Below, in pieces: positions 3-6,146 of a stretch of DNA of 6,375 bases. Position 1 is the first letter of the stretch; every line of letters begins with the position of its first letter. The notes beneath the pieces are model-generated. The model made no database searches. It was not told the DNA's origin and was given only the letters and a program-made list of their open reading frames with translations. The translations under genes and the position numbers were made by a program. This DNA is from a virus (Duplodnaviria; Heunggongvirae; Uroviricota; Caudoviricetes): the IMG/VR virus record IMGVR_UViG_2728369593_000005, positions 1 through 6,375 of that record. One strand, 5' to 3'.

Positions 3-122
3 GTGATTTCTGATAACCAGATTTACCGTGAATGGGGAATTACTAGCGAAAACGAACACCGATTCATGGTCTTTGGAAAGGTCTTAATCAGTCAGTCGCA
101 AACCCTTAAGAGACATAATTAA
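3..122 (+). CDS. 3' end (39 codons plus stop) of an upstream prophage gene, product unknown; 5' part outside window
   Basis: Only frame 3 is open from the window edge (frames 1 and 2 hit stops within 12 nt). Translation ...VISDNQIYREWGITSENEHRFMVFGKVLISQSQTLKRHN*, stop TAA at 120-122, followed 20 nt later by a textbook intrinsic terminator. Confidence 0.45.
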   Translation: MISDNQIYREWGITSENEHRFMVFGKVLISQSQTLKRHN

Positions 123-140
123 CCTCAATATCCTTCCATC

Positions 141-162
141 GGCCACCGAAAGGTGGCTTTTT
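141..162 (+). terminator. Rho-independent terminator (GCCACC / GAAA loop / GGTGGC followed by T5)
   Basis: 6-bp GC stem 142-147/152-157 with a GAAA tetraloop, immediately followed by TTTTT at 158-162, directly downstream of the stop at 120-122. Confidence 0.75.
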
Positions 163-175
163 ATTACCTATCAAT

Positions 176-226
176 TTGCATATCCCGCAAATATCACTTG
201 CATATCTCGCAATTTAATTTTATCTT
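176..226. promoter_or_regulatory. Two operator-like imperfect palindromes TTGCATATC(C/T)CGCAA 22 bp apart, overlapping a candidate sigma70 promoter
   Basis: TTGCATATCCCGCAA at 176-190 and TTGCATATCTCGCAA at 198-212, each of the form TTGC-N7-GCAA, with a centre-to-centre spacing of 22 bp (about two helical turns). The second site coincides with a -35-like TTGCAT (198-203), a 17-bp spacer and a -10-like TATCTT (221-226). Confidence 0.4.
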
Positions 227-397
227 TTGTTCCAGACCAACTACAGGATTACAACAAAATCTGGTTGCAACACGGTGCATGTGTCGTAAGCAGTCAGTAA
301 ATGTCAAAAACGAACAGGCAGGACGCCCACGAAGTAGCCGCCGGTGGCGTATGAATGACCGGATGATTCGTTAAATACTATGTGTAAGAGAGCGCAA

Positions 398-600
398 ATG
401 AACCGTTATTTCACATGCTCGTTTTGTGGCGCAAACGAGCTGCAGGCAAAAAAATCATCGCCAAAGGCGGAAAAGATGAAGTTGCTATCTGCTCTGAGTG
501 CGTAGTCTTGTGTGTCGGGGCATTAATCAATATCAGCACAACTATTCGGTTCACACCAAATGAGAATGCGCCTTTAGATGCGCGGAAATCTGGAGGTTAA
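398..600 (+). CDS. Small ClpX-type C4 zinc-finger protein (about 67 aa if read through); reading frame interrupted by a -1 shift at an A7 tract (448-454), so either a pseudogene, a programmed frameshift or a sequence error
   Basis: ATG at 398 gives MNRYFTCSFCGANELQAKK and then runs out of frame to a stop at 503-505. The -1 frame (supplied ORF 415..600) continues ...KKIIAKGGKDEVAICSECVVLCVGAL.... Joined at the A run, the product has CSFCG...KIIAG...ICxECVxLC, which closely mirrors the ClpX N-terminal zinc-binding motif (CSFCGK...KLIAGP...YICDECVDLC) as I remember it. Neither half alone has all four Cys ligands. Confidence 0.6.
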
Positions 601-2722: not shown

Positions 2723-2744
2723 AAATGCCCCTGCGGGGGCATTT
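2723..2744 (+). terminator. Hairpin AAATGCCCC-TGCG-GGGGCATTT between yfdQ and yfdR (weak terminator or attenuator; T tract only 3 nt)
   Basis: Perfect 9-bp inverted repeat 2723-2731/2736-2744 with a 4-nt loop, 13 nt after the yfdQ stop. Confidence 0.3.
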
Positions 2745-2838
2745 ATGGAAACATAATTTACTCAATAATCGCCGGATGGTGAGAGATTCCTTTTACCAGA
2801 ATTCAACGCGGTGCAGCGCATATAAAGTGGAGAACAAA

Positions 2839-4170: not shown

Positions 4171-4371
4171 ATGCAACACGAACTACAGCCTGATTCACTG
4201 GTTGATTTGAAATTCATCATGGCTGATACTGGCTTCGGTAAGACCTTCATCTATGACCGGATTAAGTCCGGCGACCTGCCTAAAGCCAAAGTTATCCACG
4301 GACGAGCAAGATGGTTATATCGTGACCATTGTGAATTCAAAAATAAGCTCTTAAGCCGCGCCAATGGGTAA
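4171..4371 (+). CDS. torI: TorI: prophage excisionase (recombination directionality factor) and inhibitor of the TorR response regulator
   Basis: The 66-aa product MQHELQPDSLVDLKFIMADTGFGKTFIYDRIKSGDLPKAKVIHGRARWLYRDHCEFKNKLLSRANG matches my recollection of TorI and has the AlpA/Xis-type helix-turn-helix pattern. GGAG 9 nt before the ATG. Sits immediately inside attR, as expected for an excisionase. Confidence 0.88.
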   Translation: MQHELQPDSLVDLKFIMADTGFGKTFIYDRIKSGDLPKAKVIHGRARWLYRDHCEFKNKLLSRANG

Positions 4372-4898: not shown

Positions 4899-6146
4899 TT
4901 ATATTGCTGAAGGTACTGGCGTTTCCATCACTATTTGCTCACGTTTTTTACTCAGGAAGAAAATGCCAAATAGCAACATCAGGCAGACAATACCCGAAAT
5001 TGCGAAAAAAACCGTCTGGTAGCCTGCGTGGTCAAAGAGTATCCCAGTCGGCGTTGAAAGCAGCACAATCCCCAACGAACTGGCAATTTGAAAACCAATC
5101 AGAAAGATCGTCGACGACAGGCGCTTATCAAAATTTGCCACGCTGTATTTGAAGACGGATATGACACAAAGTGGAACCTCAATGGCATGTAACAGCTTCA
5201 CTAATGAAATAATCCAGGGGTTAACGAATAGCGCGCAGGAAAGGATACGCAACGCCATAATCACAACACCGATAAGTAATGCATTTTTTGGCCCTACCCG
5301 ATTCACAAAGAAAGGAATAATCGCCATGCACAGCGCTTCGAGTACCACCTGGAATGAGTTGAGATAACCATACAGGCGCGTTCCTACATCGTGTGATTCG
5401 AATAAACCTGCATAAAAGACAGGAAAGAGTTGTTGATCAAAAATGTTATAGAAAGACCACGTCCCCACAATAAATATGACGAAAACCCAGAAGTTTCGAT
5501 CCTTGAAAACTGCGATAAAATCCTCTTTTTTTACCCCTCCCGCATCCGCCGCTATGCACTGGTGATCCTTATCTTTAAAACGCATGTTGATCATCATAAA
5601 TACAGCGCCAAATAGCGAGACCAACCAGAAGTTGATATGGGGACTGATACTAAAAAATATACCGGCAAAGAACGCGCCAATAGCATAGCCAAAAGATCCC
5701 CAGGCGCGCGCTGTTCCATATTCGAAATGAAAATTTCGCGCCATTTTTTCGGTGAAGCTGTCAAGCAAACCGCATCCCGCCAGATACCCCAGGCCAAAAA
5801 AGAGCGCCCCCAGAATTAGACCTGCAGAAAAATTGCTTTGCAGTAACGGTTCATAAACGTAAATCATAAACGGTCCGGTCAAGACCAGAATGAAACTCAT
5901 ACACCAGATGAGCGGTTTCTTCAGACCGAGTTTATCCTGAACGATGCCGTAGAACATCATAAATAGAATGCTGGTAAACTGGTTGACCGAATAAAGTGTA
6001 CCTAATTCCGTCCCTGTTAATCCTAGATGTCCTTTCAGCCAAATAGCGTATAATGACCACCACAGCGACCAGGAAATAAAAAAGAGAAATGAGTAACTGG
6101 ATGCAAAACGATAGTACGCATTTCTGAATGGAATATTCAGTGCCAT
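4899..6146 (-). CDS. cscB: Sucrose:H+ symporter CscB (oligosaccharide:H+ symporter family within the MFS, LacY-like; 415 aa)
   Basis: 415-aa hydrophobic multi-pass ORF. The sequence (MALNIPFRNAYYRFASSYSFLFF...) matches my recollection of E. coli CscB and is clearly LacY-like. It lies immediately downstream of a fructokinase gene on the same strand, as in the csc locus. Confidence 0.9.
   Translation of the reverse strand: MALNIPFRNAYYRFASSYSFLFFISWSLWWSLYAIWLKGHLGLTGTELGTLYSVNQFTSILFMMFYGIVQDKLGLKKPLIWCMSFILVLTGPFMIYVYEPLLQSNFSAGLILGALFFGLGYLAGCGLLDSFTEKMARNFHFEYGTARAWGSFGYAIGAFFAGIFFSISPHINFWLVSLFGAVFMMINMRFKDKDHQCIAADAGGVKKEDFIAVFKDRNFWVFVIFIVGTWSFYNIFDQQLFPVFYAGLFESHDVGTRLYGYLNSFQVVLEALCMAIIPFFVNRVGPKNALLIGVVIMALRILSCALFVNPWIISLVKLLHAIEVPLCVISVFKYSVANFDKRLSSTIFLIGFQIASSLGIVLLSTPTGILFDHAGYQTVFFAISGIVCLMLLFGIFFLSKKREQIVMETPVPSAI

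Follow-up and report, generated by a model that had tools for sequence, protein, structure and literature searches.

The two near-identical dyads at positions 176–190 and 198–212 of the window, by which we mean the whole 6,375-nucleotide stretch of DNA that was analysed, are very probably the operators OL2 and OL1 of a lambdoid prophage of the SfII/mEp460 type, with PL, its predicted early-left promoter, overlapping them. What the window covers is the early-left arm of this prophage; it ends in torI, after which the host gene cscB follows on the minus strand. The order of features, namely the 3′ end of cI, a terminator, the two sites, and then rightward genes as far as torI/xis, is that of the OL/PL position of lambdoid phages. 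The cognate regulator would be CI and, presumably, also Cro. In the literature searched, we found no binding, footprint, or transcription-start data for the SfII/mEp460 immunity type, and nothing specific on the operators of SfII, SfV, e14, or mEp460. The PaaR2 system of CP-933P belongs to a different immunity type (PMC8630535).

The preliminary description of this DNA had reported two near-identical TTGC-N7-GCAA palindromes, and both 15-mers are indeed present on the plus strand: TTGCATATCCCGCAA, the predicted promoter-distal CI/Cro operator OL2, at 176–190, and TTGCATATCTCGCAA, the predicted promoter-proximal operator OL1, at 198–212. They differ at a single position (C185 versus T207). They are assigned no strand; their centres lie at about −51 and −29, respectively, from the predicted start of transcription. 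The exact pattern TTGCATATCNCGCAA, with 14 specified bases, occurs twice in the 6375 bp when both strands are counted, against an expectation of about 5e-5, and the looser dyad TTGC-N7-GCAA, for which 0.09 copies are expected in the window, is found only at the same two places. A shuffle-based expectation of 0.83 refers to matches with up to three mismatches and is uninformative on exact matches, and the exact-motif counts were used in its place. The repeated pair is far beyond chance.

A candidate third site, TTGCAACACGGTGCAT at 266–281, was rejected: its half-sites are spaced by N6, and it is not kept in the mEp460 clade. Thus, OL consists here of two sites, and not of three adjacent operators on each side as in λ, P22, and 434; three adjacent operators are a λ-specific detail and do not define the lambdoid OL/PL class.

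Positions 3–122 (plus strand) hold the last 39 codons and the TAA stop of a CI-type repressor gene, whose HTH-encoding part lies upstream of the window, and it is because of this gene that the classical OL/PL reading is adopted. The translated frame, ISDNQIYREWGITSENEHRFMVFGKVLISQSQTLKRHN, is identical to the C-terminus of the 230-residue CI of E. coli PSJ-07 and of mEp460, and the gene ending at the equivalent of position 122 is annotated as cI in SfII or as an XRE/S24 repressor in related records. The full-length CI (230 aa), whose last 38 residues agree with the reading frame of the window, matches the Pfam families HTH_3 (1.2e-11) and Peptidase_S24 (6.1e-19), and the nearest solved structures are the 434 repressor and SinR for the N-domain and UmuD for the C-domain. 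Inspection of the CI sequence by eye reveals a likely Ala-Gly cleavage site and the Ser and Lys motifs GDSM and VKRL, which a self-cleaving repressor should have. OR and the region of cI for the N-terminal part are outside the window, and were read in the near-identical sequences of PSJ-07, 00-3076, and SfII.

Downstream of cI, the stem-loop GGCCACCGAAAGGTGGCT (stem at 141–158) is followed by TTTTT to form an intrinsic terminator of the cI transcript at 141–162 (plus strand). The SfII annotation places a rho-independent terminator at the equivalent position, and heteroimmune relatives have one there as well. The earlier statement that the sites come directly after a terminator is thus confirmed by the stem and its T-run; what had been missed is that this terminator is the repressor gene's own. 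Separately, a perfect 10-nt inverted repeat, AACCAGATTT (15–24) and AAATCTGGTT (257–266), spans the region with its arms 232 nt apart, one inside the 3′ end of cI and the other in the PL leader; it may be due to chance.

The predicted PL extends from 198 to 226 on the plus strand, with a −35 hexamer TTGCAT at 198–203, a 17-nt spacer, and a −10 hexamer TATCTT at 221–226. The start of transcription would fall at about 233–235. The preliminary description had the second site overlapping the −35, with a 17-bp spacer to TATCTT, and this holds: the hexamers are exactly 17 nt apart, and the geometry is kept in four genera. The −35 and 9 nt of the spacer lie within OL1. A consensus sigma-70 scan of positions 1–1500 did not call PL, which matches 7 of the 12 consensus positions against a threshold of 9/12. 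In the orthologous modules of Kluyvera, Buttiauxella, and Pantoea, TTGCGT or TTGCGC is followed, after 17 nt, by TATCGT, TATCTT, or TAATGT, and the first six bases of the proximal operator constitute the −35 in all four genera. Heteroimmune prophages have, at the equivalent place, a strong TTGACA-17-TAnnnT promoter flanked by dyads. Therefore, TTGCAT-17-TATCTT is accepted as the predicted PL on the strength of the comparative geometry and not of the consensus scan.

The conservation of the sites was followed in two sets of sequences. The first comprises 128 IMG/VR loci, with 79 distinct OL sequences, that were collected with an anchor downstream of, and outside, the sites. The −10 was part of this anchor, so its invariance in the 79 sequences carries no weight, and support for the −10 was counted only from the cross-genus set and a BLAST-derived set. 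Positions 1–5 (TTGCA) and 11–15 (CGCAA) of the sites are near-invariant among the 79 sequences, at 1.7–2.0 bits, compared with only 0.6–1.6 bits at the central positions 8–10; these counts come from sequences related by descent and do not represent independent events. The spacer between the sites varies in both sequence and length, the start-to-start distance being 21, 22, 23, or 24 bp in 1, 31, 25, and 21 distinct sequences, respectively, and one of the 79 distinct sequences retains a single site. The claim that the sites are phased at 22 bp is thus true of the window, where they start 22 bp apart, but this distance is not fixed in the relatives. Fixed half-sites with variable centres form the pattern that would be expected of an operator for a dimeric HTH protein, and not of a decaying duplication. 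The earlier proposal that the dyads are operators of the dimer-binding type is thus supported by comparative evidence.

The second set consists of 95 prophage loci from different GTDB species, gathered by means of a downstream RNA element (see below) and not by the operators. A TTGC-N7-GCA[AT] pair lies upstream in four of the 95, an Escherichia-type locus and loci of Kluyvera, Buttiauxella, and Pantoea, and these same four encode a CI that is 64–99.6% identical to that of the window. The pair is present in none of the remaining 91 loci, whose promoters are flanked by other dyads. In the e14 element of K-12, for instance, the N-terminal part of the repressor is unrelated, and dyads of the TGTACC type accompany a TTGACA-17-CATAAT promoter at the same place; e14 was considered as an experimental proxy and rejected as heteroimmune. 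The motif is thus specific to the immunity type: it tracks the repressor, and heteroimmune phages have other dyads in its position. It had been stated beforehand that loss of the repeats from otherwise conserved homologous prophages would speak against operators; on examination, the sites are retained.

The preliminary description had also suggested a search for further copies in the rest of the prophage. In the whole 41,475-bp SfII genome, there are three exact copies of TTGC-N7-GCAA, compared with 0.63 expected; two are at OL, and the one extra copy is in the cI–cro spacer. No further copies were found near int/xis or elsewhere in SfII. The distribution of the motif is the same within 10–15 kb around two E. 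coli prophages.

The motif thus recurs, in the relatives, in the divergent cI–cro control region (OR). Among 30 distinct variants of the cI–cro spacer, the length is constant, and the variation is concentrated in the centres of the sites. Two full sites are found in the relatives, TTGCTTATCACGCAA at −35 and TTGCGCGTTATGCAT at −83 from the cI ATG, and they are conserved in four genera. The cI-proximal site is TTGCTTATCACGCAA, and the cro-proximal full site has the form TTGCG-N5-WGCAT. These two full operators are 48 bp apart, with a TTGCGCAA palindrome between them. A search for a third full operator between the two full sites found only half-sites and the TTGCGCAA palindrome to be conserved. 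In the SfII spacer (L001, 3333–3429) and its orthologues, a conserved 10-bp palindrome, CTTGCGCAAG, located between the OR sites, overlaps the −35 of the predicted PR. Given two OR sites 48 bp apart with a palindrome between them, pairwise cooperativity in the λ style cannot be assumed at OR.

On the cI side of this spacer, the predicted PRM reads TTGCTT, 17 nt, TGTAAT. Because its −10 ends only 6 nt before the cI ATG, the cI mRNA made from PRM is probably leaderless, as in λ. On the cro side, the sequence TTGCGC-17-TAACAT (or TAATAT) is the predicted PR, and the cro-proximal operator lies over its −10 and start.

Positions 1–300 of the window constitute the immunity module. By BLAST, the module is 98.5% identical to that of SfII and about 82–84% identical to those of mEp460, some Stx2a phages, and ECOR-derived phages. 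A query spanning the module (100–420) was matched over at least 80% of its length in 397 of 5426 complete E. coli genomes, or about 7%. In most E. coli genomes, the similarity to the window begins only at about position 301–309, which places a mosaic junction at about 300–309; the immunity module is exchanged on its own. A leader RNA, described below, starts at this junction and may serve as a homology patch for the swapping of immunity regions.

The arrangement has much in common with OL/PL of λ. In both, the sites are downstream of cI and on the same strand, they head an early-left operon ending in xis, they are dyad-symmetric with the motif appearing again at OR, and the promoter-proximal site overlaps the promoter. 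The repressor has the same HTH plus S24 autopeptidase organisation, and the probably leaderless cI mRNA from PRM is a further shared trait. Adjacent operators in λ are 23–24 bp apart, and here, too, adjacent sites are about two helical turns apart, at 21–24 bp. The differences are also clear. The λ sites are 17 bp long, whereas the present ones are 15-bp TTGCA-N5-CGCAA sequences; OL of λ has three sites and the present one two; and OR of λ has three adjacent sites, in contrast to two sites 48 bp apart plus the TTGCGCAA palindrome. Further, λ has the N gene and nutL after PL, and here neither is present, their place being taken by a conserved three-way-junction RNA.

The Stx2 phage 933W, also lambdoid, reportedly has three operators at OR and two at OL (Tyler, Mills, and Friedman 2004), and it resembles the present prophage in the latter respect, but its repressor and operator sequence are different. 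The phages Stx2a_1447 and WGPS2, which share the immunity module of the window, are not the same phages as 933W. The 434 repressor and other XRE-type HTH proteins provide a structural parallel, since the 434 repressor, together with SinR, is the most similar solved structure to the N-domain of CI, and such proteins bind short dyads as dimers. However, the similarity to the CI N-domain is weak (E values between 1e-4 and 8e-3), and 434 has an unrelated operator sequence, ACAA...TTGT.

From what is known of this repressor family, we infer the following mode of regulation. CI, with its 434-like HTH N-domain and LexA/UmuD-like S24 C-domain, would bind TTGCA-N5-CGCAA as dimers, and dimers on OL1 and OL2, about two helical turns apart, would probably bind cooperatively. 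The dimer on OL1, covering the −35 and part of the spacer, would exclude RNA polymerase and keep the early-left operon silent in the lysogen. This operon would begin with the leader RNA, continue with the zinc-finger gene and yfdP-T, and finish at torI/xis. Upon DNA damage, RecA-stimulated self-cleavage of CI would free the operators, and transcription would begin at about 233–235. Cro probably would act at the same sites later.

Could another regulator use these sites? The preliminary description had allowed for a regulator encoded outside the window or for one of the small proteins within it. The former possibility is the one that stands, since CI is encoded just upstream of the window edge; the latter does not. 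That the operators belong to a regulator other than CI, such as the ClpX-type zinc-finger protein, some other small protein encoded in the window, or a host protein like CytR, is improbable in our estimation. The idea draws on the zinc-finger gene being the first one downstream of the sites, and on TTTGCATA, which is similar to the recognition octamer of CytR, GTTGCATT, itself resembling TTGCAT. The zinc-finger protein, however, is not the regulator, since its gene is frameshifted in the window, and both sites are retained in SfII and E. coli PSJ-07, where the gene is absent. A CytR octamer does not include the invariant CGCAA half. More generally, a non-CI regulator would not account for the motif tracking the CI orthologue across genera (four of four loci versus none of 91) or for its recurrence in the cI–cro spacer.

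Two further explanations dispense with transcriptional control. The pair might lack any regulatory role, having arisen by neutral tandem duplication or been left as a scar by recombination at a mosaic junction. In favour of this, the copies form direct repeats at a distance of 22 bp, one relative is missing a copy, as recombination between repeats would produce, and mosaic junctions are common in the region. A neutral duplication should decay evenly, though, and here the half-sites are near-invariant while the centres and the spacer vary; moreover, the dyad recurs at OR, and it is kept in three other genera whose CI is about 65% identical and whose surrounding sequence cannot be aligned. We consider this reading very unlikely. 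Less likely still is that the repeats are iterons or some other DNA-level site, such as a replication origin or the arm site of a recombinase. Iterons typically have a period of about 22 bp, but there are only two copies, each itself a dyad, and they adjoin the repressor gene, the replication genes being located beyond cro, on the far side of cI. Iterons would form an array of several direct repeats beside the replication initiator gene, and the lack of additional copies near int/xis or elsewhere in SfII argues against a recombinase or origin site. The operators OL2 and OL1, recognised by CI, thus continue to be the reading that we prefer.

The sites were also said to head a rightward transcription unit that reaches torI, and this agrees with the gene order in the annotated SfII, E. 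coli 00-3076, and PSJ-07. The first gene of the operon, at 380–600 (plus strand), encodes a ClpX-type C4 zinc-finger protein. In E. coli 00-3076, the protein is 73 aa long; in the window, one A is missing from a run of eight (A7 at 448–454, where the relative has A8), which breaks the gene into two frames. It is either a pseudogene or a gene with a slippage-prone homopolymer. At the distal end of the early-left unit, torI, an excisionase or recombination directionality factor, occupies 4171–4371 (plus strand), and the homologous position is annotated as torI in PSJ-07.

Several other features of this arm deserve mention. The segment 1100–1323 (plus strand) matches the Rfam model STnc100, a gammaproteobacterial sRNA, with 43.4 bits, below the gathering score of 47, and its end is formed by a long hairpin and a T-run (about 1276–1320). 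RefSeq relatives label its equivalent a “frameshifted hypothetical protein”, possibly through mis-annotation of an sRNA gene; the segment would also be an internal terminator between PL and torI. Directly after yfdQ, at 2724–2745 (plus strand), there is a hairpin, AAATGCCCC-TGCG-GGGGCATTT, for which the terminator scan made no call; it is a possible internal terminator or attenuator of the early-left operon. Beside torI and the end of the prophage, the minus strand encodes, at 4899–6146, a 415-aa MFS permease that RefSeq names “oligosaccharide MFS transporter” and that we take to be the sucrose permease CscB. Therefore, the prophage adjoins the csc locus, unlike the arrangement in K-12-like strains, where dsdC is the neighbour.

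We now turn to the leader of the PL transcript, which contains at 307–374 (plus strand) a 68-nt RNA element, folded as a three-way junction, that the covariance model scores at 93 bits. Its helices are P1 (310–314/367–371), P2 (317–319/325–327), and P3 (341–345/358–362). The element is conserved, and unannotated, in about 1400 E. coli genomes and many phages. In a gap-free alignment of 45 distinct sequences, two helices are 94.3% paired, compared with at most 44% when the partners are slid, and compensatory changes occur in 10 of 11 pairs. The 5-bp P1 and the 5-bp P3 are confirmed by 84 distinct species-level sequences, and P2 (GGC-loop-GCC) is supported by the variable length of its loop and by GTC/GAC variants. 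The junction strands CACGAAGUAGCCG and AUGA are invariant, and the P3 loop GGCRUAYGAA is conserved. Thermodynamic folding of 227–385 was no better than that of shuffled sequences (z = +1.9). Accordingly, the structure is supported by covariation and not by stability.

The element matches nothing in Rfam 15, even at E values of up to 10, and our literature search on its core sequence found nothing specific. The junction strands were compared by eye with the hammerhead core, which they do not match. A reading as a small ORF, MSKTNRQDAHEVAAGGV, was likewise rejected, the frame being broken by an indel in the K-12 e14 copy (GCCGCC versus GCCCGCCC).

In nearly all (about 90) of the 95 Enterobacterales loci, the element begins about 15–35 nt after the −10 of an operator-flanked, post-terminator promoter; in the window, it begins about 75 nt past the predicted PL start. 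Its hosts are prophages of many immunity types, including K-12 e14, SfV, ST64B, and ZF40, as well as T5-like Providencia phages. With the covariance model, single copies are detected in SfII, on the PL side, and in K-12 e14. In many loci, such as L003 (at about 5310–5370) and many from IMG/VR, the element is followed by a hairpin, AAGCGCCCTACAGGACGCTT, and then by a perfect rrn-type boxA, GCTCTTTAACAA. The leaders of many relatives thus share with rRNA antiterminators the order of a boxB-like hairpin followed by boxA; a search of the window found no boxA.

The closest parallel in kind is provided by the put sites of HK022 and HK639. These, too, are cis elements of about 65–70 nt that lambdoid phages without an N gene have at the 5′ end of their PL transcript, which offers a lead to the function of the leader RNA. 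The put sites, however, form two stem-loops, in contrast to the closed three-way junction of 307–374, and SfII has one copy of the leader RNA, on the PL side only. With filters off, cmsearch gave no above-noise match in HK022 or HK639, including the annotated putL-like RNA of HK639. Thus, what the element shares with put is its position, downstream of an early promoter and on the sense strand, and not a detectable homology.

The N-less context of SfII, and of SfIV, has been noted previously (PMC3851460). Because of this context and of the position of the element, a cis-acting role in elongation or antitermination suggests itself as a hypothesis. It is tempting to go further and propose that this undescribed RNA acts on the polymerase as an RNA-only processive antiterminator or an anti-Rho element, that is, as an analogue of put with an unrelated fold; we offer this tentatively, as a possibility that we would not at present bet on.

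In kind, the regulation proposed here is textbook lambdoid regulation. We found no earlier description of the operator consensus TTGCA-N5-CGCAA in the literature searched. The analysis yields this consensus, PL, and a probable PRM/PR layout for one immunity type, which is also that of the Shigella serotype-converting phage SfII, coliphage mEp460, and some Stx2a phages. It enables immunity typing and the prediction of prophages that would repress one another, and it aids the design of induction reporters for KplE1/e14-like prophages with torI at the end of the operon. The leader RNA, for which no function has been described and which marks where PL transcripts begin (their 5′ ends) in many heteroimmune prophages, is the more valuable lead. 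If the antitermination proposal were true, a large group of N-less lambdoid prophages across Enterobacterales would use this RNA to carry PL transcription through internal terminators to xis/torI, and a new antitermination system would be switched on and off by the OL/PL module.
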